Below, piece by piece: positions 2,574 to 33,864 of a stretch of 55,819 nucleotides of DNA. Both the position numbers and the translations under genes were made by a program. The stretch is from Deltaproteobacteria bacterium UBA4427. GTDB taxonomy: Bacteria; Myxococcota_A; UBA9160; UBA4427. Positions within the stretch are counted from its first letter, which is position 1; each line of letters opens with the position of its first letter. Where the stretch lies: NCBI GenBank assembly GCA_963854795.1, contig CAWLAJ010000001.1:1-55819 (forward strand). The letters run 5' to 3'. Under the pieces are notes generated by a model. It was not told the origin of the DNA, did no database searches, and saw nothing but the letters and a program-made list of their open reading frames with translations.

Positions 2574-3047
2574 TCAGGGCTTCGGTGCTGCCGGACTCCC
2601 GATCTCGATTGAAGCCAGTCCACCGATCAATTTTCGATGCATCCATCCGGCAGGACCGCCACTGACTTGAACGAGTACCCACTCTCCCTCGTTGACCTGA
2701 GGGAAGACGGGGGTTCCCCGAGTGAGAACCGAGAGAACGGTTTCGTTGGTCGAAGGTCCCGCGCGAAGGTTGACACGGGCGCCACGAATGATCCGAGCAC
2801 TTCCGTCGCGCGCCACGACCTGGGCCTCGTCGAGGATCGACTCGGCAACGCGTCGCGCGCGATAGACAACAAAGAGTGCCGCGCCAAAGCGACCTTCGTC
2901 GACCTGGCGCTCCGCTTCGATGAGCTTGATTCGCGCATCCTCGATTTCGGCGTCCCGCCAAGGCGCACGCGACGCTGCGCGTTCGATCTGGATGCGTGTC
3001 GGCGCCAGCGAAGAGACGGCGTCGGCGCGGGCATGGCTACCCGCCAA
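2574..3047 (-). CDS. SH3b-domain protein (C-terminal part of an interrupted lipoprotein gene, see findings)
   Basis: Bacterial SH3-like signature ARVNLRAGPSTNETVLSVLTRGTPVFPQVNEGEWVLVQV..GWMHRKLI. The track start is a TTG and there is no signal peptide of its own. It is in the same frame as ORF 3084-3326, separated by a single TAG. Confidence 0.6.
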   Translation of the reverse strand: MAGSHARADAVSSLAPTRIQIERAASRAPWRDAEIEDARIKLIEAERQVDEGRFGAALFVVYRARRVAESILDEAQVVARDGSARIIRGARVNLRAGPSTNETVLSVLTRGTPVFPQVNEGEWVLVQVSGGPAGWMHRKLIGGLASIEIGSPAAPKP

Positions 3048-3083
3048 CCCCGACTCGGCCTCGACGAGTGCGGCCTCCGCGGT

Positions 3084-3326
3084 CTAAAGATCCGCCTGAA
3101 GTCTCGAAATCTCTTGCATCAATTGCGCAGCGCGCTCGGTCTCGGCTTCACGAAAGCGCTGCGCTTGTTCGACATTGACGCGGAGCTCATCCGATTTGGA
3201 TCTGCCGGATGACTTCGAAAAAGGATTGAAGGGCAGCTCGAGACCAGCACATCCGACCATCATGGTCGAGAGCACCAGAGCCGTGCTGATTCGAAAAAAT
3301 CCGGTTGTCTGTCGATTTTCTGGCAA
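3084..3326 (-). CDS. small lipoprotein signal peptide plus coiled-coil fragment (N-terminal part of an interrupted gene)
   Basis: Lipobox-type N-terminus FFRISTALVLSTMMVGCAG followed by a coiled-coil-like sequence. It ends at the TAG at 3084-3086, in frame with the SH3b ORF downstream. Confidence 0.5.
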   Translation of the reverse strand: MPENRQTTGFFRISTALVLSTMMVGCAGLELPFNPFSKSSGRSKSDELRVNVEQAQRFREAETERAAQLMQEISRLQADL

Positions 3327-3382: not shown

Positions 3383-4384
3383 CTACCCAACCCCGCGGTT
3401 CGCTTCAGACCCCTTGGGCTGGGTTCGCCAGCGCCGATGGGTCCAGATCCACTGGCCAGGCGACTCTCGTATTTCCCTTTCGATCACGGCGGTGACCTGC
3501 TGGACATTGCGCCGTAGGATTTCTTCATCATCAGAAGCTCCGGGCGCGAGCTGGAGTGCCGGTTGAATCCGTAGGCAATGGCTGCGTCCGTCGGGCGCTC
3601 GGCGCACGAAGGCCGCCAGGACTGGAATTCCCCGCGCGGACGCGAGCGCGAGCGGCCCAGAGCGCGTGTTGGCCGGTCGGCCAAAGAAGGAGACGAAGAC
3701 GCCCTCCTCGCGGCGCGCGTCCTGATCGAGCAGGACAAGGACTTTTCGGCCTGCCTCGAGCGCACGAACGAACCGGATTCCCGCGCGTCCCATCGGGATC
3801 TGTTCGAGGGCCGGCGCGTCCGCGTCGTCGCCGCCTCGATTCGACGCAGCTCGAAGGCCGAGCATCATTTCCGTGAGTGCCGGCCGGCCGAGGTCGCGGT
3901 AGACGACGGAAATCGGAATGCCCAGTTCCGCAACTTTGGCACAAGCGATTTCCCAGTTTCCGTAGTGCGCGGTCACCATCAAGAGTCCGCCGGTCGGGCT
4001 CGCGCGCTCCGCCGCTTCGACATGCTCGAGGCCCTCGACCGAGACCCGTTCGAGCAATTCGCTTCGACGACGGCCGCGGAGGACGATCAGTTCGGCCAGA
4101 CCGCGACCAAGATGTTCGAAGACCTCTCGGGCCCAGACTTCTCTTCGCCCCGCATCTTCATCCGGCAGGGCGCGACCCAACTGCTCGCGAACGCGCACCG
4201 CCCGTGGCGCACCGATGCGATCCCAGCACCGACCGGCCAGGGCGCCCATCGCCACACTTCGATCGATCGGGATTCGCTCGAAGACGAAGGTCAAGAAGGA
4301 GGCGAGACCTAGAAGAGTTCGATCGGCCAGGGAGAGGGTACGCGGCGACAAAGGGCCCGATTCCTGATTCGCCTCATCCACCAT
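3383..4384 (-). CDS. lipid A biosynthesis lauroyl/myristoyl acyltransferase family protein (LpxL/HtrB, LABLAT)
   Basis: The HYGNWE (H-x4-E) catalytic motif, GRPANTRSGPLALA and the C-terminal PGQWIWTHRRW are typical of the family. Its start overlaps the stop of the upstream carboxylase (TGATG at 4382-4386). Confidence 0.8.
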   Translation of the reverse strand: MVDEANQESGPLSPRTLSLADRTLLGLASFLTFVFERIPIDRSVAMGALAGRCWDRIGAPRAVRVREQLGRALPDEDAGRREVWAREVFEHLGRGLAELIVLRGRRRSELLERVSVEGLEHVEAAERASPTGGLLMVTAHYGNWEIACAKVAELGIPISVVYRDLGRPALTEMMLGLRAASNRGGDDADAPALEQIPMGRAGIRFVRALEAGRKVLVLLDQDARREEGVFVSFFGRPANTRSGPLALASARGIPVLAAFVRRAPDGRSHCLRIQPALQLAPGASDDEEILRRNVQQVTAVIEREIRESPGQWIWTHRRWRTQPKGSEANRGVG

Positions 4385-7300
4385 CAGCTCGGATTGCCGC
4401 GGCGCGCCTCTTCCAGTGTCGCGATCAGGCGAGGTCGCAACTCGGCGGGTTCGAAAATCTCACTGAGCGATCCGACGTCGCGTGCCCGCTCGACCGTATG
4501 CACCGAATCGAATTCAACCGCCATGGACGCTTGTTTTTCGAGAGTTACTTCGCGCAACACGGAGTCGAGGGCGATTCGATTCAGCTCGGAAGGATCACGC
4601 CGAACGGCCTCGGTCATGTCCTTCACGCGCGGATCATCGAGCGCCTGTGCGCGAACTTCCCGAGTGAATACGACGGAGGCCGCAGGCCCGCCACCGATCA
4701 CGGAAGCATAAGAACCCGAGAGCGCGACCGCCTTCATGTTGTCGTTCAATTCCTGGGAGAACACGACATAGGCGCCACCGTGGTAACGCGAGACCACGGC
4801 GAAGTAGATCGGACCTTCGAAGTTGACCACCGATCGCGCAATCTCGGCACCATTTTCGAGCTGGATCTTTCTAAGGGATTCCGGGGAACCATCGAAACCC
4901 GAGAGATTCGCCAGTACGACGACGGGACGATTGCCGCTCGCAGCATTGATGGCCCGGGCAACCTTCTTCGACGATTGAGGAAAGAGCGTGCCCCCATTCC
5001 ACGACTCGGGACCATCGATCGGGTGGTAGCCGTCTCGAGGAACGTTCTGACTCTCGATTCCGATGAGCGAAATCGGTTGGCCACCCACATGGGCATCCCA
5101 GATGATCGCCGTCTCGGCGCCCACCCATGCGCTCCATCGTTCGAGATGACCCCCATCGACATCGATCAGCGACGCCATGACCGAGCGCATCGAGAAGGGG
5201 CGTTTTCGGCCGGGATTCGCTTCGACGTCGAAAAGTTCTCCGACCGTCGAGATTCCGTTGGAATCGCCATTCTTGAGCTGGGTGTCGCCGATCGATCGCG
5301 ATTTTTTGTCGCTGGTTGCGAACAGTCGCGGCCGCGATTCGCCTGGAACCACGTAGGTAAACTCGTAGTGCTCGTAGAGAATTCGATAGGCGTCTGCGAG
5401 GTTTCGGGCGAAATACTGTGCCTCGCCATTGGGGCCCATGATCCGTTCGAAGCCACCGATCGCGACTTCATCTTCCGCGGAGACGGCACCGGAGGCTTCG
5501 AGCGCCGCACGACCGGTGAGAACCATCGACGCGTTCTGCGTCATGATCAAAACGCCGCGCGTGTGCATCAGCATCGTTGCAAGGGCGTCGAAATAGCTCT
5601 GCGCACCCACGTTGATGCCCTGAACGATGATGTGGACGACGCCGCCCGACTGCGTGAAGGTCACGATTCGGCGAACGACACGGGCGGTCGCATCGAGATT
5701 CTCGGTGCCGCTATCCATCGCGATCCTCGCACCCGAAGAAATGGGCACCCATTCGAGTGGCACGCAAAGGGATTCTGCGAGATCGAAGGCGGCGATCATG
5801 CGGTCGCATTCGGGAGCCGACAAGGCACCCATATCCATGGTCGGATCCGAGAGGACGAGGACCCGCAGCATGCCCTCGGGCACTTTTTCAGTCGGCGTCC
5901 GAATCAGCCCGAAGACCACGGCGGATCGATTCTGCCCGTGAGGACGATCGGCGACACTCATCGCACGAGGCGCATCGCTTGCCGGATCGAGCTCGTATTC
6001 TTCGAACGTCGCGTCGGCGCCCGCACCGTCCTTCGATTCGCTCGTCAGCATCCTGACGATCTCATACGGATAGATGTGACGGCGGCGCCTCGCGGCGACG
6101 ACCTTGCGCTGATATTCCTGAGTCGGAGCCAGGACGGAGTCGTGCGGTTCTCGCCAAACGACCTCCAGCTGTTCCCCGGTATCGGTGATGATCAATTCCC
6201 AGGGCACGGCCGGCTCGTCGGGATTCTCTCGATCGAGACGATTGAGCCGGACGAGCACTTTCTCGAGACCGAGGTGTCGGGTCGCGGGCGCGAGTCGCCG
6301 GGCGATGTCGGTCGCGACGTCCGGGTCGACGAAGATCGACGGTGCGACGAAGATGGCAATCCGATTCCATTGCAGTCGTCTTCGCGGATCGTGTGTCTGT
6401 AGAATCGTTCGCAGTCGCCGTGCCGCGCGATTGAAAACACGTTCGAACGTCGCAAGATGGTGATAGAGCTCGCGACCGGGCTCCGGCGACCGATCTCGGG
6501 CATCCGCCAGGACGAAGACCCGTTCGTCGCCGGGGGCATCGTGTGCACGCCCGTGAAAAGCGTAGATGCCCTCCTCGGCGTTTAGTCGCTCCAGGTCGAA
6601 AGCCTGATAGCGCTGGAGATCAATCCTGTCGGCGGTTTCGGGATGCAGATCGTAATGTTCGACCGCGACTTCGATTTCGCCACCCCGACAAACGAGTGTC
6701 CGATAGACATCCCCTTCACCATCGGGCGTCAAGACGCCGATCGTCAAGCGCCAGGCGAATACTCTGTCGCGATAGGTATCCCGAATGGCGCCGAGCGTCG
6801 CTTCCCAATCGAATTCCTCGCCCAACGGCATCAGGTATTCGAGTGCCAGTACAGGAGTTTTCGGGTCGTGCTCGAGCAGCGACTGCGCACCTCGCATGAG
6901 CCGATCGACCCATAGGCTCGTTTGCGCGACATCGCCGGTCGCGGCAAGGACGACACCCTTTCCGCGATACTCGACGCAGTGAATCGGCTCGCCGTCGACG
7001 CGAACACGCCGAAAGGCCACGGGCGTACTTGGCGCATAACGTCGCTGAACATGAGCGGCTAGCGCGATCGCCCGGCGATTCGTATCCGAACCACCGATCC
7101 AACGACCGACCCGCTCGAAGACGAGGCGCGGCGACGAAGCGACTTCCAGAAGCACACCGGTGGGCGGTGCGATCAAATCGACCTCGGCGGCGGCCAGCCA
7201 CTCTTCCACCGTGCCAGATGATCGTTTCGCACGTTCTTCGATGCCCGGCTGCTGGAATACGACGTATGCCGATTCGAGTGCGGCGTCGGCGACCGCGTCC

Positions 7301-10005
7301 GTTACCTGTGGACGCATGCGAACGATCCGGTTGAGCGCGCGCGCCAGCCGATCATCGTCCCCCATGTAGATCCCACTCTGCGCGAGAGCCGTGATTCGTC
7401 TGAGGACTCCGAGAATGAGCGAGAGGCGAAGCGTCTTGGCGACCTGACAAGTCAGGATACGCAGCAGGGCGCGGCGAAGTGCATCGCTGGGTGCCAGATC
7501 ATCGACGCCGTAATGAGACAGGGCGGATCGGACGAGATCGAGAAAGACCTCGTCGATCCCTGCGCCTTCCGCTTCGATCCGACGCAGGTACATGCGCAGG
7601 CGAGCACTGTTCGAGGGCCCCGATTGCCCGGAAATCGAAGCGCTCGGCGAGCGAATCGAAAGCAGCTCGACGTCGGCAAACGTCGTCACTTGATTGCGAA
7701 TTTCCGCAAGCTCACGGCTGAAGCTCTCGGAGATCGTCTCCGGCAGCGGGCTCTCGAGAAAGGACGCCAGGGATTCCGCGCGATCGGGGTTCGCGTCGTA
7801 GCCAAGCAACACACGGCGAATCTCTTCACGCACCGCGTCGATCGCGAGGCGACGGGATGCGAGGTCCGCTCGGTCTGCTGCGGCGAGATCGGGCTCGCCG
7901 AGTTGCCGCACACCGTCCGAAAGGTCCTTCGGTCGAAAGAGCAAGGCCAGCGGATCGATTTGCTCGGGCAGACGAAGACGCTCACGCTCCGACTCGTCGC
8001 CGGATTCGGAATCGAGCTCCTCGATTATGAGAATCAGGTCTCCGGCGGCAACCTGCTGGCCCTTTTGAGCGAGAATTTCCTTGATGGTTCCCGAGACCGG
8101 CGCCTGGAAGCCGATCTCCATTTTCATCGCTTCGAGCAGACCCAGCGGCTCGCCAGCGGCGACGCTCTGGCCGACCTCGACCTGGATCGAGACGACCACC
8201 GCGGGCGTTCCCGATCGCACTTGCCCCGCCGTCTGCGAACCGAAACGAAAGGGATGTCCGTCGACTTCGAGTCTCAGTCCGCGGTCGTTCGCATCGTGAA
8301 GTATCCGACGAACACGGTCGTCGATGATCAGCCGACCGGCATGCTCCCCTTCCTCTCGCATCGTCGCGCCCACGGCCATCCCTTCGAGATGAACGCGGTA
8401 ACGCCATGAGCCGATCGCATAGACCTTGAGCCGATAGCTCTCAGCACCAAAGGTGAGGTCGATTTGCTGACCGTCCGAAGACGGAAGCCGATCTGCCCCT
8501 CCGCGAGCATCCAGGATTCCGGTTCGCAGCGTCGCGCGGGTTCTCTGATACGACAGGATCGCCGCGGCCACCAGCGCGTCACGAGAGACTTCGGGATGCG
8601 ATTGGACGACGTTCGCGCGTGATGCCGACCATCGATCGAGCCAACGCGTGTCGACCCCACCCTTTCGAAAATCATCACTGTCGAGAACGTCGAGCAGGTA
8701 GCCCTTGTTGGTTGCGCCGCCTTCGACCACGAGTTCTAGATCACGCAGCGAACAAGAAAGGCGCGCGATTACGTCGTTTCGATCATCTCCGTTCGAGATG
8801 ACCTTCACGATCAGTGAATCGAAATCCGAAGAAACGAGCGAGCCCGTCACGACGCCGGAGTCGACGCGGGTATTGGGTCCAAGCGCGGGTTCGAAGAGTG
8901 CTATGCGGCCTGGCGAGGGCAGAAAGCCCTCGTCGGGATCTTCTGCGCAAATGCGGGCTTCGAGGGCCATGCCCCTTTGTTGGATGGAAACCTTGGCGAT
9001 CGACTCGCCGCGGGCGATGCGAATCTGGAGTTCGACTAGATCGACACCCGTAATGATCTCGGTGATTCCGTGTTCGACTTGCAGACGAGGATTCACCTCG
9101 AGAAAGAAGTAGTCGCTGCCCGTCAGCAGAAACTCGACCGTTCCGACGCCGTGATAACCCACGTGCTCGATCAAGCGGACGGCGGCATCCTCCAATCGAT
9201 CGAGCAATTCCTTGGACAAACCGGGCGGCGGCGCTTCCTCGAGTACCTTCTGATTGCGTCTCTGGACGGAACAGTCGCGACAACCGAGCGACATGGCGTA
9301 GCCATGAGTGTCCGCTGCGACCTGCACCTCGATATGGCGACCATCGCGAACCATCGCTTCGACGAAGAGCGCATTGTTCCCGAATGCCGAGCCGGCCTCG
9401 GACTGTGCCGACCGAAAGGCTTCTGCCAGTTGGGCGGGCTCGTCGACCATGCGAATACCGCGTCCCCCGCCCCCGGCCGTCGCCTTCAAGACGACGGGAA
9501 AACCGATTCGCTTGGCGTGTTCGAGTGCATCCGCTTCGTCAACGAGCGCGCGACCACTCCATTTGGTCACAGGAACGCCGGCTTTTTCTGCCAGTAGCTT
9601 GGCAGTGATCTTGTCGCCAAGTGATCTCATCGCGCTAGCACTCGGCCCGAGGAAGACGATGCCTTCGGTGGTCAAGCGATCGACGAAGGTCGGGTCCTCG
9701 GCGACAAAGCCCCAGCCTGGCCAGACCGCGTCGGCGCCGACCGATCGCAACGCGGCCAATACGGCGTCGTGGTCGAGATAGGCGGCGACCGCTCCGTTCT
9801 CCGCCGAAAGAGCCACCGCCCGATCCGCCTGCCGCACGAAGAGTGCGTCGCGATCCGGCGGCGTGTAGAGCGCGATCAGTTCCAGACCGCCCCCTTCGGC
9901 TTCACGAAGGCTCTTGGCAGTTCGCAGACATCGAACGGCAGCCTCGCCCCGATTCACGATGGCAAGACGCTCAATTCTTCGTAGGATCCCCTTGGCGCTT
10001 GTCAT
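4384..10005 (-). CDS. single-chain multidomain biotin-dependent acyl-CoA carboxylase (BC - BCCP - long central region - CT), 1873 aa
   Basis: The N-terminal biotin carboxylase ATP-grasp domain shows IVNRGEAAVR, KATAGGGGRGIR and EVNPRLQVEH. The biotinyl domain carries LEAMKMEI (Lys codon at 8122-8124, residue 628). The C-terminal carboxyltransferase is of eukaryotic ACC type (ISSGARIAMDSG, LANLSGFDGSPESL, RYHGGAYVVFS). ATGA overlap with the PPTase stop at 10002-10005. Confidence 0.9.
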   Translation of the reverse strand: MTSAKGILRRIERLAIVNRGEAAVRCLRTAKSLREAEGGGLELIALYTPPDRDALFVRQADRAVALSAENGAVAAYLDHDAVLAALRSVGADAVWPGWGFVAEDPTFVDRLTTEGIVFLGPSASAMRSLGDKITAKLLAEKAGVPVTKWSGRALVDEADALEHAKRIGFPVVLKATAGGGGRGIRMVDEPAQLAEAFRSAQSEAGSAFGNNALFVEAMVRDGRHIEVQVAADTHGYAMSLGCRDCSVQRRNQKVLEEAPPPGLSKELLDRLEDAAVRLIEHVGYHGVGTVEFLLTGSDYFFLEVNPRLQVEHGITEIITGVDLVELQIRIARGESIAKVSIQQRGMALEARICAEDPDEGFLPSPGRIALFEPALGPNTRVDSGVVTGSLVSSDFDSLIVKVISNGDDRNDVIARLSCSLRDLELVVEGGATNKGYLLDVLDSDDFRKGGVDTRWLDRWSASRANVVQSHPEVSRDALVAAAILSYQRTRATLRTGILDARGGADRLPSSDGQQIDLTFGAESYRLKVYAIGSWRYRVHLEGMAVGATMREEGEHAGRLIIDDRVRRILHDANDRGLRLEVDGHPFRFGSQTAGQVRSGTPAVVVSIQVEVGQSVAAGEPLGLLEAMKMEIGFQAPVSGTIKEILAQKGQQVAAGDLILIIEELDSESGDESERERLRLPEQIDPLALLFRPKDLSDGVRQLGEPDLAAADRADLASRRLAIDAVREEIRRVLLGYDANPDRAESLASFLESPLPETISESFSRELAEIRNQVTTFADVELLSIRSPSASISGQSGPSNSARLRMYLRRIEAEGAGIDEVFLDLVRSALSHYGVDDLAPSDALRRALLRILTCQVAKTLRLSLILGVLRRITALAQSGIYMGDDDRLARALNRIVRMRPQVTDAVADAALESAYVVFQQPGIEERAKRSSGTVEEWLAAAEVDLIAPPTGVLLEVASSPRLVFERVGRWIGGSDTNRRAIALAAHVQRRYAPSTPVAFRRVRVDGEPIHCVEYRGKGVVLAATGDVAQTSLWVDRLMRGAQSLLEHDPKTPVLALEYLMPLGEEFDWEATLGAIRDTYRDRVFAWRLTIGVLTPDGEGDVYRTLVCRGGEIEVAVEHYDLHPETADRIDLQRYQAFDLERLNAEEGIYAFHGRAHDAPGDERVFVLADARDRSPEPGRELYHHLATFERVFNRAARRLRTILQTHDPRRRLQWNRIAIFVAPSIFVDPDVATDIARRLAPATRHLGLEKVLVRLNRLDRENPDEPAVPWELIITDTGEQLEVVWREPHDSVLAPTQEYQRKVVAARRRRHIYPYEIVRMLTSESKDGAGADATFEEYELDPASDAPRAMSVADRPHGQNRSAVVFGLIRTPTEKVPEGMLRVLVLSDPTMDMGALSAPECDRMIAAFDLAESLCVPLEWVPISSGARIAMDSGTENLDATARVVRRIVTFTQSGGVVHIIVQGINVGAQSYFDALATMLMHTRGVLIMTQNASMVLTGRAALEASGAVSAEDEVAIGGFERIMGPNGEAQYFARNLADAYRILYEHYEFTYVVPGESRPRLFATSDKKSRSIGDTQLKNGDSNGISTVGELFDVEANPGRKRPFSMRSVMASLIDVDGGHLERWSAWVGAETAIIWDAHVGGQPISLIGIESQNVPRDGYHPIDGPESWNGGTLFPQSSKKVARAINAASGNRPVVVLANLSGFDGSPESLRKIQLENGAEIARSVVNFEGPIYFAVVSRYHGGAYVVFSQELNDNMKAVALSGSYASVIGGGPAASVVFTREVRAQALDDPRVKDMTEAVRRDPSELNRIALDSVLREVTLEKQASMAVEFDSVHTVERARDVGSLSEIFEPAELRPRLIATLEEARRGNPS

Positions 10006-10760
10006 GCTGTGCGTACTCGCGTCACGACGGAGGGACGCGTGGACTGCTGGCTTGCCAGAGACCGCTCATCCTTCTCTGAATGCGATTCGAGGCCCATCGC
10101 ATAACCAACCCATTTCCCGTGATGCGACAGCGATAGAGACAGGTCGGTTGGGGCGTCGTCGAAGACGAGGGTCGGGATGCGTCCGCGACCCCCGATGGAG
10201 AGTCGCTCCACCGCGACGCCCAGCCTTTGTCCGATTTCGCGGATCGCCAGTTCCCGAACGGCGGTATTCGGGTCCTGCGGCTCGCGACCGAGACTCTCGA
10301 CGGCAAAGTCGACGCCGCCCCAATCCGTCCTGGCCGGCGCCGCGATCACATGGATACGCTCCAAACTCTCGTCCGTCCGCAATTCGAGTTCGAGCGGCTC
10401 TCGTCGTTTCCCGGGTCGAGAGTCGGGTCGAGAGTCGGGCGCGGGCGCCAAGCCAATATCCGGCCATTCGAGTAGGAGACTTCCACGGCGCTCGCGCTTT
10501 TCGGCGCCTTCGCTCGCCATCGGCGCATAACATGCAATCAGTCGCCGCGGCGCGAACACGAATGTCGGATCGATCTGCCGCGCAAGCTTGTAGGCAGCTT
10601 CCTTTGCGGCCCAATGTGCCCATCGTCTCGCGAGCGGATTCGGATCTTCCGCGATCGCACGTCGTTCGCTCTCGGAAAAGACGCGTCGATCGAAGCCCGG
10701 CCGAAAGGTCTCCGGGCGAGCGTCGCGATCGCGGAGATCCACGACGTCATTGCCGAGCAT
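10002..10760 (-). CDS. 4'-phosphopantetheinyl transferase
   Basis: GNDVVDL at the N-terminus, RVFSESERRAI, and WAAKEAAYKL (the W/KEA motif of PPTases). ATG at 10760 (the track starts at the TTG at 10763). It overlaps the upstream acyltransferase 3' end by 14 nt. It contains a 12-nt tandem duplication encoding PDSRPDSRP. Confidence 0.75.
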   Translation of the reverse strand: MLGNDVVDLRDRDARPETFRPGFDRRVFSESERRAIAEDPNPLARRWAHWAAKEAAYKLARQIDPTFVFAPRRLIACYAPMASEGAEKRERRGSLLLEWPDIGLAPAPDSRPDSRPGKRREPLELELRTDESLERIHVIAAPARTDWGGVDFAVESLGREPQDPNTAVRELAIREIGQRLGVAVERLSIGGRGRIPTLVFDDAPTDLSLSLSHHGKWVGYAMGLESHSEKDERSLASQQSTRPSVVTRVRTA

Positions 10761-11559
10761 CAAAATAGTCCCTTTCCAGATGTGCGAGCTGACGGGTCAC
10801 CTGACGCGACAGATCGAGCGAACGGCGCACGCCGCGCGCGTCGCTCTTCGGTTCGATACAGACCATTGAAACGTCGAAGACATCCCCCTTCTCGGGAAAA
10901 TCACTCCAGGACGTCTGCCTGTGCCCGCGCAAATAGACACAGAGCACGCGACAGCGGGGAACGCGACCCACGACACGACCCACACCCCAGGCCGCGGCCT
11001 CTTCATCCACGCGGCCGGATCGGCTTCGACCCGCTTCCGGAAAGAGCAAGGCCGTCTCGCCGCTCGAGAGCAGGTACCGAACACGCTCGAGGACCGAGGC
11101 AACGCCTTCGCGCGATCCTCCACGTGTGATCGAAATGCACTTCATCCAGTAGATCATGATCCGCGAGGTCCACGTCGTCCCAAAATTCGTGCTCTCCGGA
11201 GTGTTCCAGACCATCTCGTCGGGGTGGGTCAGCCAATACACGCCCGATCCCAAGGCCCAGGAGACCAGGAACGAATCGACCAGGGTCAGATGATTGGCAC
11301 AGATGAGCATCGGGGCGTTCGATTGGCGCCGAATTCGTTGGTACTCCGCACGAAGCGAAGTGACTCTCTCGATCCGGTATCGGAAATGGAAACGCATCGC
11401 GAGGATCGTCAGACCTAGCCAGATCGGCGAGGTCAAGATGCTCACGATTCGCTGCCGCCCATGGCGGCGCACCATCAGGGAATCCCCGCCAGCGGGCCCT
11501 CTCGCCACGGTCGGAGAATCCGAGCGATGGTCCTCCGCGCCGGTCATCTGGTCATTCAT
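10747..11559 (-). CDS. PlsC-family (1-acyl-sn-glycerol-3-phosphate / lysophospholipid) acyltransferase
   Basis: H-x4-D block ANHLTLVDS, FPEAGRSRSG block, and an N-terminal TM segment IVSILTSPIWLGLTILAM. Confidence 0.8.
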   Translation of the reverse strand: MNDQMTGAEDHRSDSPTVARGPAGGDSLMVRRHGRQRIVSILTSPIWLGLTILAMRFHFRYRIERVTSLRAEYQRIRRQSNAPMLICANHLTLVDSFLVSWALGSGVYWLTHPDEMVWNTPESTNFGTTWTSRIMIYWMKCISITRGGSREGVASVLERVRYLLSSGETALLFPEAGRSRSGRVDEEAAAWGVGRVVGRVPRCRVLCVYLRGHRQTSWSDFPEKGDVFDVSMVCIEPKSDARGVRRSLDLSRQVTRQLAHLERDYFDARQ

Positions 11560-11595
11560 TTCGGGACTCGCATATGCAGGTCTCTCGAAATCGAA

Positions 11596-11841
11596 TCAGA
11601 GCTTTCCCGAAATGAGATTGACGGCATCGCCCACGGTATTGACCTGATCAACGTCTTCATCCGCAATCTCGATATCGAAATCGTCTTCAAAGGCGATGAC
11701 GACATCCACGAGTCGCGCCGAATTGACTTTGAGATCGTCCAGAATATTGGTCTCCATCGAGACCTGGCCCAATGCCGCTTCGTCCTTGACCCACGGCGTG
11801 AGAATCTTGACGACTCGCTCCATCACTTCCGACTGTTCCAT
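11596..11841 (-). CDS. acyl carrier protein (atypical attachment-site motif)
   Basis: 81 aa, acidic, four-helix ACP pattern. The presumed phosphopantetheine serine lies in DDLKVNSARLVDVV instead of the canonical DLGxDSLDxVE. Confidence 0.8.
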   Translation of the reverse strand: MEQSEVMERVVKILTPWVKDEAALGQVSMETNILDDLKVNSARLVDVVIAFEDDFDIEIADEDVDQVNTVGDAVNLISGKL

Positions 11842-11922
11842 CCTTCACTCCCTCTTCTTGGCTCTTGTTACTTCTGTCTTTTCTTCATGAGAATCTCATT
11901 CGCTCGTTGGAAGAATCTCCGA

Positions 11923-11938
11923 CGAACGCATGCGTTCG
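11923..11938. promoter_or_regulatory. perfect 16-nt palindrome CGAACGCATGCGTTCG between the KS stop and the ACP start (hairpin or operator)
   Basis: Read directly from the sequence. It lies in the 103-nt gap, the largest intergenic gap inside the operon. Confidence 0.3.
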
Positions 11939-11944
11939 CGAGCG

Positions 11945-13237
11945 CTACTCCTTGTAGCGCTTGAAAACGAGACAGGCATTGACGTCGCCGAATCCAAATC
12001 CGGCCTTTACGAGTACTTCGAGGTCCGGCATTTCGATCATGCTATGCGGAATCGATTTCGCGTGCTTTTCGATTTCCGGATGAATGTCCTCACAGTTGAT
12101 CGAAGGATGGACGAAGCCACGCTCGACCATCAAGATCGACGCGACGGCTTCGAGACCTCCGGCCGCTCCGAGCGCATGTCCCACCATGCTCTTGGTTGCC
12201 GTCAGTGGCGGCAGTGATCCGGGATCTCGTCCCAACGCCTTCGCCCAGGAATCGACTTCCTTCGGATCCGCTCCGGTCGCAGTCAGATGACCATTGATCG
12301 CATCGACTTCGTCGGGACGAACACCGGCGTCCGCGAGAGCGTCGGAAATACAGCGCTGAACGCTGGTCGGATTCGGAGCCGTCATGCTGCCGCCCATTCG
12401 ATGGCCGCCACAATTGATGCCAGAACCCGCGAGTTCGGCACGAATCTTCGCACCTCGCGCCAGCGCACTCTCGAGGCTTTCGAGCATGACGGCGCCGGCA
12501 CCCGAACCGGGTATGAAACCACCCGCGGACGCACTCAAGGGCCGCGATGCCTTTTCAGGTTCGTCATTCGAATTGCGATTCAAGACGCGCATCGAATCGA
12601 ACCCCGCCCAGATGAAATGACTCGCCGCCTCGACTCCGCCGCAGAGCATCCGATCGGCCAGCCCCGCACGAATCCGTTCCATTCCCATAGAGAGGGCTTC
12701 GGTTCCCGTGCTGCAAGCGCTGGAATTGGTCGTCACCTGATTGCCGAGAGCCAGCAGCCCCGAAAGCCGCGCCGAAATTCCGCTGGCCATCACCTGCTCA
12801 ACGCAGACCGAGCCCATTCGCCGCACCTTGGCAGCATTGGTGAGAGGAACGACTTTTTCGGCGATCGTATCCATTCCCCCGATCCCGGTACCCATGATTG
12901 CGCCGGTTTCCCAATTCACTTCGTCAGAGTCCTCGGCGGGACGTTCGAGTCCGGCGTCCAACCACGCCTCGATCGCCGCGAGTCCCGCGTAACGATGATT
13001 CATATTCATCGCCATCAGCTGTTCTTCGGTAAAAGTCTCTTCACATAGCGCGTCCACACCTTCGGGCGTACCCGCAACCGTGCAGCCGAATTTCGCTTCG
13101 GCCATCGCTTCCTGATGTCGCAGGCCCGAGTGACCCTTGCGCAGTGCCATCTCGAAATCAGCCACGCCGTTCCCGTTCGGCGCGATGACGCCGATGCCGG
13201 TAATGACCACGCGCTTGCGTTCCTGGTTCCCACTCAT
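11945..13237 (-). CDS. beta-ketoacyl-ACP synthase I/II (FabB/FabF-like elongating KS)
   Basis: VVITGIGVIAPNG; active-site Cys in NSSACSTG; His residues in INGHLTAT and MVGHALGAAG. I prefer the ATG at 13237 (MSGNQERK...), which forms an ATGA overlap with the dehydratase stop. The track start at 13273 would overlap further. Confidence 0.85.
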   Translation of the reverse strand: MSGNQERKRVVITGIGVIAPNGNGVADFEMALRKGHSGLRHQEAMAEAKFGCTVAGTPEGVDALCEETFTEEQLMAMNMNHRYAGLAAIEAWLDAGLERPAEDSDEVNWETGAIMGTGIGGMDTIAEKVVPLTNAAKVRRMGSVCVEQVMASGISARLSGLLALGNQVTTNSSACSTGTEALSMGMERIRAGLADRMLCGGVEAASHFIWAGFDSMRVLNRNSNDEPEKASRPLSASAGGFIPGSGAGAVMLESLESALARGAKIRAELAGSGINCGGHRMGGSMTAPNPTSVQRCISDALADAGVRPDEVDAINGHLTATGADPKEVDSWAKALGRDPGSLPPLTATKSMVGHALGAAGGLEAVASILMVERGFVHPSINCEDIHPEIEKHAKSIPHSMIEMPDLEVLVKAGFGFGDVNACLVFKRYKE

Positions 13238-13692
13238 CGTGGCACTCCCATTCCGGACAGCTCTCCCGAGCAAACGACCGTCCCATCATCGATCGTCATC
13301 TCAAAGGTGGCACGCAGTTTCTTGCGGCGAAAGAACTTCACGCGTCCGGTCGTCTGAACCCGATCTCCCGGCCGTACGGCGCCCGAGAAATCAATGTTGC
13401 AATCGGTAAAGATCGTGAGCAGCTTGCCGACATCCTCCCGCGAAGTCTGGAGCGCATAGAGGTAAATGCCAAACGCAACGACACTCGCCTGCGCGGCGGT
13501 TTCGATCAAGATGACACCCGGCGTGATCGGATTGCCCGGGAAGTGGCCGCGATAGAAGTCGGCTTCTGGCGAGAAGGTATGGCGCGCCACGATATGGTCG
13601 GCATCGAGTTCGAGAATCTCGTCGATGAAACGAAACGGCTCCTGTTGCGGCACCAATGCCAGGACTTCGGCGACCGAAAGTGTGTCACCCAC
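13234..13692 (-). CDS. fabZ: 3-hydroxyacyl-ACP dehydratase, FabZ-like hotdog fold
   Basis: PFRFIDEILELD...GHFPGNPITPGVILIETAAQ signature. The preferred start is the GTG at 13692, preceded by GGAGG with an 8-nt spacer. The alternative ATG at 13713 lacks an SD. The track start at 13785 lies inside fabG. Confidence 0.75.
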   Translation of the reverse strand: MGDTLSVAEVLALVPQQEPFRFIDEILELDADHIVARHTFSPEADFYRGHFPGNPITPGVILIETAAQASVVAFGIYLYALQTSREDVGKLLTIFTDCNIDFSGAVRPGDRVQTTGRVKFFRRKKLRATFEMTIDDGTVVCSGELSGMGVPR

Positions 13693-14413
13693 CGTACATG
13701 CCTCCGTTGACATGGAGGACCGTCCCATTGATGTAACTCCCGCGCGTCGCGAGAAACGCGACGACATCGGCGATCTCATCCGCATTGCCCATTCTCCCCA
13801 TCGGGATCTTGGCCAGAATCGCTTCCTTGACTTCTTCTGGTAGCTCTTTGGTCATTTCGGTATCGATGAACCCGGGCGCGATCGAATTGATCAGGATGTC
13901 GCGGCCGGCGAGTTCCTGTGCGACGGACTTGGTCATGGCATCGAGACCCGCCTTCACCATCGTATAGGGAACCTGCCCGGGATTCCCGGTATGTCCGACC
14001 ACGCTCGAAATATTGATGATGCGCCCCGTTCCCTTCCGCAACATGAATCGACGCAAGATCAACTTCGTGAGATACCAGGTTCCCCGCTCGACACTGGCGA
14101 CGGCATCATATTGGTCGAGTTTCATCGCGAGCATCGGCGCGTTTTCGTTGTAGCCCGCGTTGTTGACGAGGACGTCGACGCGTCCGGCAACTTCTTTGAG
14201 TTCCTTGACGAGTGCATCGAGGGTTTCGGGTTCCATCAGGTCGGCCCGGATCGTGAAGGCGCCATCGAGTTCGGCGGCGAGCTTTTTGGCCTTTTCCTCG
14301 CTCGAGCGATAGTGGATGCCCACTCGAAAACCCTCGCCGGCAAGTCGACGACAACAAGTGGCACCGATTCCGGTTCCACCTCCCGTCACCAACGCGATCG
14401 GCTGATCACTCAT
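13685..14413 (-). CDS. fabG: 3-oxoacyl-ACP reductase (SDR)
   Basis: TGGGTGIG cofactor motif, NNAG, and the catalytic YTMVK (Y-x3-K). 242 aa. ATGA overlap with the fabA stop at 14410-14413. Confidence 0.85.
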   Translation of the reverse strand: MSDQPIALVTGGGTGIGATCCRRLAGEGFRVGIHYRSSEEKAKKLAAELDGAFTIRADLMEPETLDALVKELKEVAGRVDVLVNNAGYNENAPMLAMKLDQYDAVASVERGTWYLTKLILRRFMLRKGTGRIINISSVVGHTGNPGQVPYTMVKAGLDAMTKSVAQELAGRDILINSIAPGFIDTEMTKELPEEVKEAILAKIPMGRMGNADEIADVVAFLATRGSYINGTVLHVNGGMYGG

Positions 14414-15003
14414 CGTTCCGTCCTTCCGCCATGGGCGTTCTCGCTCTCGAAGGGGTAGTCCGGATAGTCGATCCCTTGAAAGAGCCCGACCCGAGCACCC
14501 TTGATCGTATAGATTTCCTCGTCATCGATCAGCACCTGCGCGTCGCCGATCACCATCGCCGCGCCCGCCTTCTTGAGTTCGGTGTAGCGCTTGATCTGAA
14601 CCTCGTATCGCATCATCCCGTCGTGCGGCCGGATTTGACCAAAGAACTCGACCTCTCCGCACCCGAGTGCCCGTCCGGTCCCGACGCCCCCTCGCCAATT
14701 GCAATAGAAACCGAGCAGCTGCCAGACACCATCGAGGCCGAGACATCCCGGCTGAACCGGGTCATCCAGGAAATGACAATGAAAGAACCAATCATCGAGC
14801 CGCACATCACGAGCCGCGCTGATCTTTCCGCGACTCTTGTCGGCGCTGATCTCGTCGATCCGGTCGACCATCAACATCGGCGGTAGCGGCAAGCGCGCGC
14901 GAAAACCCTCCGGCGGATCCTTGATCAAACGGCCATAGGCAAAGGCGAGCAACTCCGATTGCGAAAAAGAATCGCGCCCCAGAAACTCAGCATGAGTCAG
15001 CAT
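14410..15003 (-). CDS. fabA: 3-hydroxydecanoyl-ACP dehydratase / trans-2-decenoyl-ACP isomerase
   Basis: Strong match to the FabA core: LPLPPMLMVDRI, DWFFHCHFLDDPVQPGCLGLDGVWQLLGFY, GRALGCGEVEFFGQIRP. Confidence 0.85.
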   Translation of the reverse strand: MLTHAEFLGRDSFSQSELLAFAYGRLIKDPPEGFRARLPLPPMLMVDRIDEISADKSRGKISAARDVRLDDWFFHCHFLDDPVQPGCLGLDGVWQLLGFYCNWRGGVGTGRALGCGEVEFFGQIRPHDGMMRYEVQIKRYTELKKAGAAMVIGDAQVLIDDEEIYTIKGARVGLFQGIDYPDYPFESENAHGGRTER

Positions 15004-15009
15004 TGCAGT

Positions 15010-16005
15010 TCAGTCGTCCTCGTGAAAACGCATAAGATAACTCCCCCAGGTGAGCCCAGAACCCACACCCACGACGCAAATATCATCGTTTTGGGTCCAT
15101 TTGTCCCAATCCTGGGAGATCACACCACCAGAACTCGCCCCGCCTGTATTTCCGAAATACTCACAATTGAAATGATGTCGATCTTCCGGGATTTCACAGC
15201 GCTGACAGACGGATTCGAGCATTCGAAGATTCGCCTGATGACCGACGAAATGAAAATTTCGCTGATCCCCTTCGAATTCTTCGCGAGTCTTCAAATAGAG
15301 ATCGGAGGTCTTGCGAATGGCAAAGGCCTGGACCGTTCGGCCTTCTTGTCGGAAATGCCCATTGCGAGGAATCACGACTTTCCCATGACCGCGGGGATCG
15401 CTGGTCAGTGTTTGACCCAGCAGAGCCGCCCGGCCGCGATGTTTCGTCGAGAGTACTGCCGCGAGCGCGCCATCTCCCCAAAGCACCGCTGAAGATCGGT
15501 CGTTGTAGTCGACGGTTCCCGTCATCGGTTCCGCCGTCACCAACAAGACGACTTCAGGAAGCTTGGCCGGGTCCATCAACGAAAGCATGTAGATGCCCGC
15601 AATGAAACTCGAACACGCCGAACTGATGTCGAGACAGGCCGCCTCGACTTCGAGTTCCGCGCCGATATTGCACGCTTCGGCCGGCGACGCCGTATCGGGT
15701 GCGCATCCGCCCCCGATCAAGAGCCCGACATCCGACGTGGATACACCCGCGCGATCCAGCGCCATCCTTGCTGCTCGCCCACCCATCGCGGCATTCGAGA
15801 CCAGGGCGGCTTGCGTGGCTTCGCGGGGATCTCGATTCCGGGTTTCACGAATATAGTCGAGAGGGAGCGCCGTCCGTCGACTGCGGATTCCGGTTCGCTC
15901 GAGAATCCATTCGTCATTGGTGCCGATGTCGAGTTCTTCGAGGAATCGATTCGTAATTTCGTTCTCGGGATGGAAATGGCCCAATCCCAAAAGATTCAAG
16001 CTCAA
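15010..16005 (-). CDS. fabH: 3-oxoacyl-ACP synthase III (KAS III)
   Basis: Cys-His-Asn triad contexts SSACSSF, VGHQANLRM and FGNTGGAS. 331 aa. Confidence 0.8.
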   Translation of the reverse strand: MSLNLLGLGHFHPENEITNRFLEELDIGTNDEWILERTGIRSRRTALPLDYIRETRNRDPREATQAALVSNAAMGGRAARMALDRAGVSTSDVGLLIGGGCAPDTASPAEACNIGAELEVEAACLDISSACSSFIAGIYMLSLMDPAKLPEVVLLVTAEPMTGTVDYNDRSSAVLWGDGALAAVLSTKHRGRAALLGQTLTSDPRGHGKVVIPRNGHFRQEGRTVQAFAIRKTSDLYLKTREEFEGDQRNFHFVGHQANLRMLESVCQRCEIPEDRHHFNCEYFGNTGGASSGGVISQDWDKWTQNDDICVVGVGSGLTWGSYLMRFHEDD

Positions 16006-16074
16006 GACTATTCTCCAAGCTGGATCACGTGTCGCGAGTCGGAAGCCAACGATGCCTCCTCGTGCGATGCGTGT

Positions 16075-17025
16075 TCAGCGAGTCGCTCCTGAAATGTGCT
16101 CCCCACCGTCGACGCGAATCACTTCACCATTGATCCAACTCGCTTCGTCCTGGGAGAGAAGAAAGATCACACCCGCAACGTCTTCGGGCGTGGTCAGGCG
16201 ACATCCGGGGTTGCGCAGCCGTGCCTGACTCTTCAGCTGATCACTACCCGGGATGGCTCGCAATGCGGGCGTATTGGTCACGCCCGCCTGAATCACATTG
16301 CAGCGGATGCCGTGTGGGCCGAACTCGACGGCGATCGAACGCGAGAGCGCCTCGAGTGAAACCTTGGCCGCCGAGACCGCCGCATAGCCGCGCCAGGCCA
16401 CTTCATTGCCCTCGCTGGTCAGCCCGAAGATGCGCGTGTCCGGAGCGAAGAGACCTCGTGCAAACAATTCCTGCGTCCAGCCGAGCAGACTCGTACCCAT
16501 GGCCAGAATCGTACGACTGAAGTCTTCCTCGTCGAGGTAGGAACTGTCGGGGTAGATCGGAGCGCTCGTGAGGGGGTGCAGACCATCTTCACCCTCTTCG
16601 AAGAGTTCATCCGCAAGTTCGGTCAGTTTGGCGGGATCGACACCGAGTCGAGTAGCGAGATTCGGGCCCGCAGTCCGCTCTTCTCTCTTCTCCGGAGCGA
16701 TTAGTTTGAGATTCCCGAAGGCGATCGAATGTAACAAGACGCGAATTCGACCCTCCGGTCCGATCGCCTCGGCAATAGAATCGATCGTGAGCGTGCGTTT
16801 GTCCGCACTGATCGCGTCGGCGTTCCAGATATGGAGTCCGGTTCCGATTTCGGCCAGCTCGTCGAAATGAGGTTGGATGTTCTTCATCGCCCCCCGCCGA
16901 TCACGATGGACGATCAAGATGTTCAGCCCACCACGGGCCAGACGTTTGGCGGTCGCCAAACCAAAACCGCTGGAGCCACCCAGAATCAGCGCCCACTCAT
17001 TGCTCGGAAAATCGCTCGTTGCCAA
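16075..17025 (-). CDS. SDR-family enoyl-ACP reductase-like protein (FabI/FabL-type Y-x6-K) with an internal insertion
   Basis: Rossmann motif ILGGSSGFGLA. YAAVSAAK gives the Tyr-x6-Lys spacing characteristic of enoyl reductases rather than the Y-x3-K of ketoreductases. A roughly 50-aa acidic insertion (EKREERTAG...EEGEDGL...) is present. It is the first gene of the operon. Confidence 0.55.
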   Translation of the reverse strand: MATSDFPSNEWALILGGSSGFGLATAKRLARGGLNILIVHRDRRGAMKNIQPHFDELAEIGTGLHIWNADAISADKRTLTIDSIAEAIGPEGRIRVLLHSIAFGNLKLIAPEKREERTAGPNLATRLGVDPAKLTELADELFEEGEDGLHPLTSAPIYPDSSYLDEEDFSRTILAMGTSLLGWTQELFARGLFAPDTRIFGLTSEGNEVAWRGYAAVSAAKVSLEALSRSIAVEFGPHGIRCNVIQAGVTNTPALRAIPGSDQLKSQARLRNPGCRLTTPEDVAGVIFLLSQDEASWINGEVIRVDGGEHISGATR

Positions 17026-17475
17026 AAGAGTCCCCTTCAGATCATTCTTGCGGATTGAGGAAAACCAGTTCCCGTGTCCAAGCCTGCAGTGTCGACAGAC
17101 CTCACGGGCCGGCCGTACTCATCCGTTCAAGATTCACTTTCGATGAAAATCCGTTCCCTGAAAAGGCGCGCCTCTAAAACCCAACGCCCAGATCTCGACG
17201 ACCGAACCCCGATGAACTTTCCCGGTCCGCCCCCAGCGGTCCGTGCGCTCGCTCGAAGAACCCGGACGCGATCTCGCAAAGCGCGGGATTCGGGTGAGAA
17301 AATAGCGGTGGAGACTATCCTCGATTGCAAATCTCTCGCAAAATCTCGAAGCGTATTCACCGCCGAGCCAAAGCATGACCGGCAGTCAGGCTAGGTCAAC
17401 GCAGCAAAATCAGCTATGTGGTTATTAAGACCCATATCTGTGTTTCAATGGCTCGCGTGGGCCTCGGGATCGGCG

Positions 17476-32996: not shown

Positions 32997-33845
32997 ATGG
33001 CTGATTTGACACGCTCTCCTCAACTCTTCGTTCCTCACCACAAGCCTCCGGAGAGCCCGGGCGAAAGCCCCATCCTTTTCGCATTTCGTGGGCGTGAGCT
33101 GCTCGTGACGAGCGAATTGCAGCTGCCGAAAGTCGAGGAAATCGACGCACAGGGCATCGAGGCCGTCCGCACCCAGTACCTCGGCGATCTCGGTGGCCGA
33201 CATTGCTACTCCGCCGAATTACCCAAGGACGCGGCGGTCTCAGCCGGATTCCGCTTCGCGGATCTGCGCACCCTCTTCGGATCCCTCGACGAGATCGTGC
33301 ATGCCCTCGCTGGGCGCGCCGTGCAGATCGTCGAATGGGACCGCACACATCAATTTTGCGGAGCTTGTTCAGAACCGACGGAACTCTCCGACAACGATCG
33401 CTCGCGAAGTTGCCCGAAATGCAAGATCCCGAACTATCCAAGGCTGGCACCCGCCATGATCGTCGCGGTCGAAAAGGGCAATCAGATTCTGCTCGCCCGC
33501 TCTCCCCATTTTCCGCCCGGCATCCTGAGCGTGCTGGCCGGCTTCGTCGAACCGGGAGAGAGCGCGGAGGAAGCTGTCGTTCGCGAGGTCTTCGAAGAGA
33601 CTTCGATCATCGTGAAGGACGTACAGTACTTCTCGAGTCAGGCCTGGCCCTTTCCGAATTCGCTGATGCTCGGCTTCCGCGCGACCTACGACTCCGGCGA
33701 GATCGTGATCGACGGCGAGGAAATCGTGGAAGCAGGTTGGTTCGCCGCCGACGCGATGCCGACCGCGTTTCCCGGAAAGGTCAGCATTTCGCAGTGGCTG
33801 ATCCACGATTTCTTGTCGAGAAACGGTCAGGCCGATTCGGCCTGA
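32997..33845 (+). CDS. nudC: NAD(+) diphosphatase / NADH pyrophosphatase (Nudix, zinc ribbon)
   Basis: Zinc ribbon CGACSEPT...CPKC. Nudix box GFVEPGESAEEAVVREVFEETSI followed by SQAWPFPNSLM. Confidence 0.85.
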   Translation: MADLTRSPQLFVPHHKPPESPGESPILFAFRGRELLVTSELQLPKVEEIDAQGIEAVRTQYLGDLGGRHCYSAELPKDAAVSAGFRFADLRTLFGSLDEIVHALAGRAVQIVEWDRTHQFCGACSEPTELSDNDRSRSCPKCKIPNYPRLAPAMIVAVEKGNQILLARSPHFPPGILSVLAGFVEPGESAEEAVVREVFEETSIIVKDVQYFSSQAWPFPNSLMLGFRATYDSGEIVIDGEEIVEAGWFAADAMPTAFPGKVSISQWLIHDFLSRNGQADSA

Positions 33846-33864
33846 TTCCATCGTCGTTCTGGTT

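Follow-up and report, generated by a model that had tools for sequence, protein, structure and literature searches.

The genes of fatty acid synthesis (FAS) stand together with those of the carboxylase that feeds it in the fab-acc clusters of Firmicutes, such as that of Streptococcus pneumoniae with the order fabM-fabT-fabH-acpP-fabK-fabD-fabG-fabF-accB-fabZ-accC-accD-accA. A single-chain carboxylase of eukaryotic type serves FAS in Saccharopolyspora erythraea, where SACE_4237 is a homodimeric acetyl-CoA carboxylase (ACC) of ~200 kDa which has the central region, carboxylates both acetyl- and propionyl-CoA, is essential and is the malonyl-CoA source for de novo FAS (Livieri et al. 2019, PMC6491548). 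The central domain of ACC has been called unique to eukaryotes (Hunkeler et al. 2016), and bacterial ACCs with this domain have been reported in actinomycetes only (Livieri et al. 2019, PMC6491548). Here, we describe a locus in Deltaproteobacteria bacterium UBA4427 (contig CAWLAJ010000001.1, positions 1 to 55,819; this whole stretch of 55,819 nucleotides is referred to as the window) in which eleven minus-strand genes, from 17025 to 3383, encode a type II FAS gene set with a non-canonical acyl carrier protein (ACP), a phosphopantetheinyl transferase (PPTase), two acyltransferases and a eukaryote-type ACC. The comparative sequence evidence indicates that this operon is a vertically inherited core trait of the uncultured Myxococcota_A (class UBA9160) and that its components have co-diverged around the non-canonical ACP. 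Most of its parts are ordinary FAS II enzymes, and the ACC family has been described; what is new is the non-DSL carrier with its linked PPTase, the design of the operon and the wider range of the eukaryote-type ACC.

An earlier note on this DNA, made from the letters alone, had listed the eleven genes and their junctions, and both are confirmed by the open reading frames (ORFs) of the window and by a separate gene calling of the source contig (ENA ERZ27247699 k141_1216103, 201,680 bp). ATGA overlaps join FabA to FabG (14410-14413), FabZ to the ketoacyl-ACP synthase (KAS; 13234-13237) and the PPTase to ACC (10002-10005), the ACC stop and the LpxL start share TGATG at 4384, and the PlsC and PPTase genes overlap by 14 nt (10747-10760). 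The remaining intergenic gaps in the run are 69, 6, 103 and 36 nt, and FabZ and FabG overlap by 44 nt if the gene caller's FabZ start (13234-13728) is used. Such start-stop overlaps are kept in the gene calls of relatives' clusters, and a consensus scan found no excess of promoter- or terminator-like sites within the run over shuffled sequence. The coupled junctions, the recurring gene order described below and the lack of an internal promoter or terminator excess support the single-operon reading, and the eleven genes are accordingly predicted to be one translationally coupled operon.

Conservation was assessed in two sets of loci. Set 1 was obtained from species-representative genomes scanned with an alignment of the central-plus-CT (carboxyltransferase) part of ACC and by tblastn of the window proteins, plus a few contigs from exact-protein look-ups, and comprised 48 loci in which 6.5 kb or more of sequence precedes ACC on its upstream side. 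Set 2 comprised 80 independent JGI metagenome contigs from a scan anchored on the ACP. In the paired counts below set 1 precedes set 2, and the denominators are contigs with enough flank. The gene order recurs in ~130 independent contigs, far beyond chance. A full FabH-FabZ-KAS-ACP-PlsC-PPT-ACC core was found in 35 of the 48 loci of set 1, a nearly full core in three, FabH and ACC only in one (L051) and ACC alone in nine; in these nine the ACC identity is ≤ 55% and the labels are Polyangiaceae, Sandaracinaceae, Polyangiales, Deltaproteobacteria or Binatia. In set 2, KAS (52/52), FabZ (40/40), FabH (24/24), PlsC (75/75, downstream of the ACP) and ACC (42/42) were always present and PPT was present in 51 of 52 contigs. 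The co-conservation of gene order in related genomes, for which a neighbourhood check had been proposed, is thus found in both locus sets. The reductase (18/34, 19/20), FabG (29/35, 22/24) and FabA (32/35, 19/24) were each missing from some related clusters and do not belong to the invariant core. The same applies to the LpxL-type gene, which lies near the cluster in only 21/28 and 5/15 relatives and is absent from all examined clusters that are not flanked by DinG.

At least three genomic contexts, unrelated to one another, contain the core. UBA4427-type genomes are syntenic over a thiamine pyrophosphate (TPP) enzyme, DinG, the cluster, SH3, GGDEF, a radical SAM pair and DnaA, and other flanks of the core include PilZ upstream and luciferase-like, M24 peptidase or aminotransferase genes downstream. 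Since the core recurs with unrelated flanks, the linkage of its genes is functional and not mere synteny. The window proteins are 77-86% identical to members of f__UBA4427, so that the window very probably comes from this family, and all relatives are metagenome-assembled genomes (MAGs) labelled Myxococcota, Deltaproteobacteria or Spirochaetaceae. Three of the cluster-bearing genomes, MFD09964.bin.2.4 (L009), MFD05684.bin.2.192 (L059) and GCA_016713665.1 (L049), are placed in p__Myxococcota_A; c__UBA9160 (proposed Vahlivitia); f__UBA4427 (bioRxiv 10.64898/2026.07.10.737566). It was also observed that L014, L017, L020, L026, L040 and L058, which are titled 'Spirochaetaceae bacterium', carry the same cluster, several with the same flanks, and these labels are probably wrong. 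At the syntenic position of L051 (MAG PL23a_bin.57) the TPP enzyme, DinG and an alpha/beta hydrolase are followed by FabH and ACC only; the operon may here be at an intermediate stage or degenerate.

The carrier of the operon is an ACP of 81 aa (11596..11841, this and all other operon genes being on the minus strand) recognized by the Pfam PP-binding profile, with the presumed phosphopantetheine Ser41 encoded at 11719-11721. Families were assigned throughout with Pfam and NCBIfam profiles, and scores are given against curated cut-offs or gathering scores. All NCBIfam ACP models scored below cut-off, the best being TIGR00517 and NF002148 (56.4 vs 71 and 49.3 vs 70.45 bits), and neither the curated score nor the D-S-L-D site of a housekeeping AcpP was found in this protein, which is 35-39% identical to E. 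coli AcpP. The window sequence reads DLKVNSARLVD at the site, and DL(K/E)VNSARLVDVV is invariant in 39 species and in a further diverse aligned set, so that the unusual site pointed out from the letters alone proves to be a family character. Aligned with E. coli AcpP, the site differs by D35N, L37A and D38R, adjoining the modified serine. The positions flanking this serine are those read by AcpS in canonical ACPs. As we interpret the alignment, helices II and III keep their acidic residues. The family is large, with about 1900-2200 clusters at 90% identity, and was never seen outside this operon in all the neighbourhoods examined; two ACP protein searches returned, among the matches listed, same-family members only and no outgroup.

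The gene at 10002..10760 encodes an AcpS-like 4'-phosphopantetheinyl transferase of 252 aa with a variable internal insertion. The Pfam ACPS profile (PF01648) matches residues 3-60 only, with 38 bits against a gathering score of 25. The motifs GNDVVD, KEAAYK and LSLSHHG are invariant and occur in AcpS order while the middle is variable; orthologues are 194-261 aa compared with about 120 aa for an AcpS-type protein, the insertion being up to ~130 residues. The enzyme evolves fast (29-57% identity among relatives), and a PDB sequence search gave no useful match. In L018 and L023 (marine MAGs TMED72 and MED660) and in L103 (a JGI contig) the PPTase gene is missing and PlsC is directly followed by ACC. 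The N-S-A-R site of the ACP is retained in L018 and L023, and judging from this gene content the priming enzyme of the three must be encoded elsewhere.

The carboxylase is a single chain of 1873 aa (4384..10005) which Pfam domains, a profile search and AlphaFold2/Foldseek identify as a eukaryote-type acetyl/acyl-CoA carboxylase. Its order is BC-BT-BCCP, central region, CT, with the biotin carboxylase (BC) domain at 8635-9975, the BCCP (biotin carboxyl carrier protein) domain at 8023-8220 (biotinyl Lys628 codon 8122-8124), the central domain at about 6001-8010 and the CT domain at 4633-5874. The N-terminal third resembles the alpha subunits of bacterial methylcrotonyl-CoA and propionyl-CoA carboxylases, and the CT domain is nearest to those of eukaryotic ACC. 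A profile of the central region built from 23 orthologues matched in the PDB only the ACC central domains of yeast, Chaetomium and human (E 7e-9, two collinear stretches). The AlphaFold2 model of residues 666-1335 (pLDDT 85.5, pTM 0.82) corroborates this, as all 31 of the 31 significant Foldseek matches were eukaryotic ACCs (best E 5e-20), with TM-scores up to 0.62 when normalised to the yeast AC3-AC5 fragment. Both the domain order and the homology of the central domain are thus those of a eukaryote-type multidomain ACC. Over its whole length the protein shares 41% identity with a Gordonia member of the actinobacterial multidomain group, and its central-plus-CT part has 617 relatives at E ≤ 1e-30 (clusters at 50% identity), mostly of 1750-1910 aa. 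Sequence and model together place the window carboxylase in the SACE_4237 family of eukaryote-type ACCs. The 'giant fused carboxylase' of the earlier note is thus a member of a family that has been characterised (PMC6491548), and orthologues stand alone elsewhere. Two other multidomain carboxylases were considered as identities and set aside: the LCCs, which are without a central domain (PMC4833862, PMC6491548) whereas the window protein has one, and Shewanella AccS (PMC11602165), another multidomain ACC with a different domain order.

Stand-alone orthologues of this ACC were found in L036, L038, L039, L044, L045, L047, L048, L050, L054, L068 and L069. The gene stands among housekeeping genes in Polyangiaceae-labelled MAGs and in an uncultured Holophaga, on whose chromosome it lies two genes from a BioB-like gene, and amid unrelated genes on the Gordonia plasmid p174. 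Stand-alone central-domain ACCs are also present in MAGs labelled Sandaracinaceae, Polyangiales and Binatia. The occurrence of eukaryote-type ACC outside Actinomycetota is more than is described in PMC4833862 and PMC6491548.

The FAS enzymes of the operon are of type II, with a separate KAS III, KAS I/II, ketoreductase, hotdog dehydratase, enoyl reductase and small ACP, and the Pfam and NCBIfam assignments agree with the gene identities that had been proposed. The first gene (16075..17025) encodes an enoyl-ACP reductase of 316 aa, a FabI/FabL-like short-chain dehydrogenase/reductase (Pfam adh_short_C2) with a ~60-aa insertion. Its best PDB matches are FabL of B. subtilis (3oic) and FabI of T. 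thermophilus (1ulu), and Y214-x6-K221 is conserved in orthologues. KAS III (FabH, 331 aa, 15010..16005; Pfam ACP_syn_III and ACP_syn_III_C) scored 199 bits against the NF006829 cut-off of 249, and C131/H256/N286 are invariant in 36 orthologues. The FabA dehydratase/isomerase (197 aa, 14410..15003) scored 203.6 bits with NF003509, over the cut-off of 124, and 171.5 bits with TIGR01749, under the cut-off of 238; H77 and D91 are invariant and isomerase function is predicted. The 3-oxoacyl-ACP reductase FabG (242 aa, 13685..14413) reached 248.6 bits against a TIGR01830 cut-off of 297.75, with invariant S137/Y150/K154. A FabZ-like hotdog dehydratase (164 aa, 13234..13728; Pfam FabA domain) scored 74 bits with TIGR01750 (cut-off 155), has invariant H62 and E76, and carries precomputed ApeI-like and ApeP-like Pfam matches. 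The elongating KAS I/II (430 aa, 11945..13237; Pfam ketoacyl-synt N and C domains) reached 294 bits against the TIGR03150 cut-off of 494; C175/H317/H354 are conserved, and the enzyme is about equidistant from FabF (1e5m, 207 bits) and FabB-type synthases (3lrf, 204 bits; 1dd8, 178 bits). FabA alone passes an NCBIfam cut-off, and FabG, FabH, ACP, KAS and FabZ fall short. Because catalytic motifs are invariant or nearly so across 22-52 orthologues (22-38 for the FAS II catalytic residues), the operon enzymes look active.

Two acyltransferases of different families complete the gene set. The PlsC/AGPAT-family protein (270 aa, 10747..11559), which has a hydrophobic N-terminal segment, matched Pfam PF01553 with 41 bits against a gathering score of 23 and TIGR00530 with 24 bits against a cut-off of 103. 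It carries the motifs NHLTLVD and FPE(A/G)GRSR, of which H90-x4-D95 and FPE-G-R are invariant, and had no PDB sequence match. The LpxL/HtrB-family (Lip_A_acyltrans) protein (333 aa, 3383..4384) matched Pfam PF03279 with 130.7 bits and TIGR02207 with 106 bits against a cut-off of 297.8. Its best NCBIfam name is 'lysophospholipid acyltransferase family protein', its PDB match to LpxM (5kn7) is weak, and H140-x4-E145 is conserved within the motif H-(Y/F/L)-G-x-W-(E/D). By these scores the PlsC-like, LpxL-like and PPTase proteins appear to be remote members of their families.

Homology searches found no FabD in the window or in the reached flanks of the source contig, in agreement with the lack of FabD already noticed for the window, and the rest of the window is without any other FAS gene. 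In four of the 19 contigs with enough upstream sequence (L099, L138, L149, L150), FabD is the first gene of the operon and lies directly against the reductase gene or overlaps it, giving the order fabD-ER-fabH-fabA-fabG-fabZ-KAS-ACP-plsC-PPT-ACC. The position of FabD at the operon head makes a complete FAS II in those lineages. These FabD proteins scored 220-244 bits against the TIGR00128 cut-off of 260.9. A search for a second FAS II set with E. coli FabD, AcpP, AcpS and FabI as queries, over ~1.3 Mb of retrieved DNA and the 80 metagenome contigs, with up to about 10 kb of flank, recovered only the FabD of the four orthologous operons. A literature search found no description of this operon, and NCBIfam holds no specific model for the ACP, the PPTase or the acyltransferases; the impression that the architecture was undescribed therefore stands, with neither a curated family nor a published account found.

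We consider it somewhat likelier that the operon is the main type II FAS and lipid-acylation operon of its lineage than that it is a private second system. This reading is favoured by the presence of FabD within the operon in some lineages, the carboxylase family, which is essential in S. erythraea and stands alone among housekeeping genes elsewhere, the universal retention of the core and its slow evolution. Among the Myxococcota_A-type loci with enough flank, L051 is the only one that does not retain the core, and in the same genome pairs the identity is 85% for ACP, 76-80% for FabG, 71-75% for KAS and 73-74% for FabA compared with 39-57% for DnaA and 52% for DinG; the core enzymes are also more conserved than the menaquinone radical-SAM genes of the same genomes. 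The gene set holds one copy of each housekeeping function, and no thioesterase, exporter, glycosyltransferase, starter-unit or tailoring genes were called beside the cluster in Pfam-annotated neighbourhoods. The alternative is a private second FAS II which would work beside a canonical FAS with a DSLD-AcpP, use its own carrier and PPTase, borrow FabD and in some lineages FabG and FabI from the main FAS, and deliver a particular chain into one kind of lipid by means of the PlsC-like enzyme, joined in some families by the LpxL-like one. Its chain might be unsaturated, or extended from a main-FAS primer as in mycobacterial FAS-II or rhizobial AcpXL. Several observations weigh for such a system and against a main FAS. 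N-S-A-R replaces the near-universal D-S-L-D, invariantly and at positions read by AcpS, helices II and III keep their acidic residues, and the ACP falls below every curated ACP cut-off. The KAS, FabZ, FabH, FabG, PlsC and LpxL proteins lie under NCBIfam equivalog cut-offs, with the KAS midway between FabF and FabB, and such scores are the pattern that diverged paralogues should give. However, FabD also scores just below its cut-off, and sub-threshold scores may thus be due to how deep the lineage is and not to paralogy. A PPTase gene beside its carrier is typical of secondary systems, and here the ACP has beside it a divergent PPTase gene in translational coupling with a PlsC-like gene. Clusters that borrow FabD include type II polyketide synthases and the acpXL-type, and FabD is missing from most cluster versions here and the reductases often. 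The ApeI/ApeP-like matches of the dehydratase and the precedent of a carboxylase component in the fabD-acpM-kasA-kasB-accD6 operon of M. tuberculosis point the same way. On the other hand, a private line would have to accommodate the evidence given above for a main FAS, and the three clusters without a PPTase, two of them with the ACP site unchanged, indicate that the ACP/PPTase pair is separable. Overall we regard a private second system as a serious but rather unlikely explanation.

Two further readings fare worse. Adjacency could represent conserved synteny of several independent housekeeping units, as the whole neighbourhood is syntenic in UBA4427-type genomes, but the same core order with entirely different flanks, the conserved start-stop overlaps and the lack of an internal terminator or promoter excess make this highly improbable. 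An aryl-polyene (APE) or flexirubin-like type II polyketide or pigment cluster, with a product lipid-anchored by LpxL-/PlsC-like transferases, is suggested by the ApeI/ApeP-like matches, by the presence of both acyltransferase families and by the absence of FabD, as in APE clusters. The operon, however, encodes an enoyl reductase, a bona fide FabA, FabH and ACC, and has one ACP and one CHH-type ketosynthase (KS) without a chain-length-factor partner. Its LpxL-like gene lies outside the conserved core, and genes for an ammonia lyase, an adenylating enzyme, a thioesterase, a methyltransferase or LolA/MMPL export are missing from the neighbourhoods examined. An APE-like pigment cluster was therefore rejected on gene content and has hardly any probability left.

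A mechanism may be proposed for the operon as a main FAS, which as a whole derives from family membership and intact active sites. The eukaryote-type single-chain carboxylase would provide malonyl-CoA, the AcpS-like PPTase would convert the carrier to holo-ACP at Ser41, and FabD, which would be encoded elsewhere in this genome, would load malonate on holo-ACP. FabH would start chains and KAS I/II extend them, each cycle being closed by FabG, the FabZ-like dehydratase and the FabI/FabL-like reductase, and FabA would divert part of the flux to cis-unsaturated chains through a cis-3 branch. The PlsC-like enzyme is predicted to use acyl-ACP for acylation of a lysolipid in the membrane, and the LpxL-like enzyme of UBA4427-type genomes may acylate lipid A or another lipid.

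The operon gives a conserved lipid-synthesis module for Myxococcota_A (UBA9160), an uncultured lineage that is abundant and lives in marine, sediment, soil and activated sludge habitats. The N-S-A-R carrier and its linked AcpS-like enzyme constitute a natural test of the residues needed by PPTases and FAS enzymes, and the pair could serve as an orthogonal ACP/PPTase pair for engineering. The presence of eukaryote-type ACC in Myxococcota_A, in Polyangiaceae- and Sandaracinaceae-labelled MAGs, in one Binatia-labelled MAG and in Holophaga weakens an exclusively actinobacterial origin. The stronger form of the favoured reading, that Myxococcota_A has no FAS and ACP system besides this operon, appears to us evenly poised between true and false. 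If the operon is the sole system, a phylum-level lineage would run all metabolism that depends on acyl-ACP (phospholipids, lipid A, lipoate, biotin) on an Asn-Ser-Ala-Arg carrier, which a co-evolved AcpS with an insertion would prime and a eukaryote-type ACC would feed, a naturally re-coded ACP/PPTase pair. This ACC would then have a home outside Actinomycetota, in a Myxococcota-related phylum, which bears on the origin of eukaryotic ACC. If instead it is a second system, the operon would define a new class of dedicated acyl-lipid pathway.

The operon is flanked upstream by a DinG-like exonuclease-helicase gene and downstream by an SH3 lipoprotein gene and a GGDEF gene. The 450-nt intergenic region that separates the first operon gene from the DinG-like gene (17026..17475, minus strand) is the presumed promoter or regulatory region. 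Upstream regions of relatives are mostly unalignable, one short motif excepted: TTTTGCGAGAGATTTGCA at 17326-17343 (-), ~300 nt upstream of the first operon gene, is followed by CCACCGCTATTTT, and both are common to the upstream regions of L007 and L008 and partly to those of L011 and L013. The TTTTGCGAGAGATTTGCA motif may act in the regulation of the operon or belong to its promoter. On the downstream side, the DUF4398/SH3 lipoprotein gene (2574-3326, minus strand) appears to be split by an in-frame TAG into ORFs at 3084-3326 and 2574-3047, and L003 and L004 each have an undivided orthologue, of 222-226 aa. At this place the gene caller of the source contig chose a 181-aa ORF on the opposite strand. 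A pseudogene, an error of assembly or a miscall may account for the split gene. dnaA lies ~5.5 kb from the operon with a radical-SAM gene pair between them (source contig L001 19416-23973), an arrangement syntenic in L003 and L004. One radical-SAM gene has a CofH_C domain and is possibly MqnE/MqnC-like, of the futalosine pathway. Two tandem acyl-CoA dehydrogenase genes with nearby alpha/beta hydrolase genes are found at about 33800-36200 of the window (L005 5780-8155), which suggests a fatty-acid degradation capacity near the biosynthetic operon.

Compared with known systems, the operon shares features with several and coincides with none. APE and flexirubin clusters are likewise of type II without FabD, with an ApeI/ApeP-like dehydratase and LpxL-/PlsC-like transferases. 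They differ in being without enoyl reductase, FabA, FabH and ACC, and in having a KS with a chain-length factor, two ACPs, a starter-unit enzyme, a thioesterase and export genes. Since these APE hallmark genes are absent from the neighbourhoods examined, and the four enzymes that APE clusters lack are present, the aryl-polyene analogy drawn in the earlier note does not hold. The second analogy drawn there, with the rhizobial acpXL-fabZXL-fabF2XL-fabF1XL-lpxXL locus, is founded on a special ACP, a hotdog dehydratase, a KAS and a Lip_A_acyltrans transferase, which both systems have. The rhizobial locus is without FabH, FabA, ACC, PPTase and PlsC, and the likeness breaks down since the LpxL-like gene is missing near the cluster in 7/28 and 10/15 relatives with flank. 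The M. tuberculosis operon also has its own ACP, an elongating KAS and a carboxylase component, with reductases elsewhere, and the NCBIfam AcpM model gives the operon ACP a sub-threshold match of 42 bits. AcpM, however, has a DSL site, AccD6 is a CT subunit only, and that operon has no PPTase, PlsC, FabA or FabH and works beside a type I FAS. Firmicutes fab-acc clusters likewise hold FAS II and its carboxylase in one co-oriented cluster, but they have a DSLD AcpP, always FabD and a four-subunit ACC, and are not known to carry PPTase or acyltransferase genes. For the carboxylase, the likeness to SACE_4237, as judged through the Gordonia homologue and published descriptions, extends to a ~200 kDa single chain of BC-BT-BCCP-central-CT order whose central and CT parts have their homologues in eukaryotic ACC. 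Unlike SACE_4237, the window gene is a distal member of a FAS operon, overlaps a PPTase gene and belongs to a host of the Myxococcota_A.

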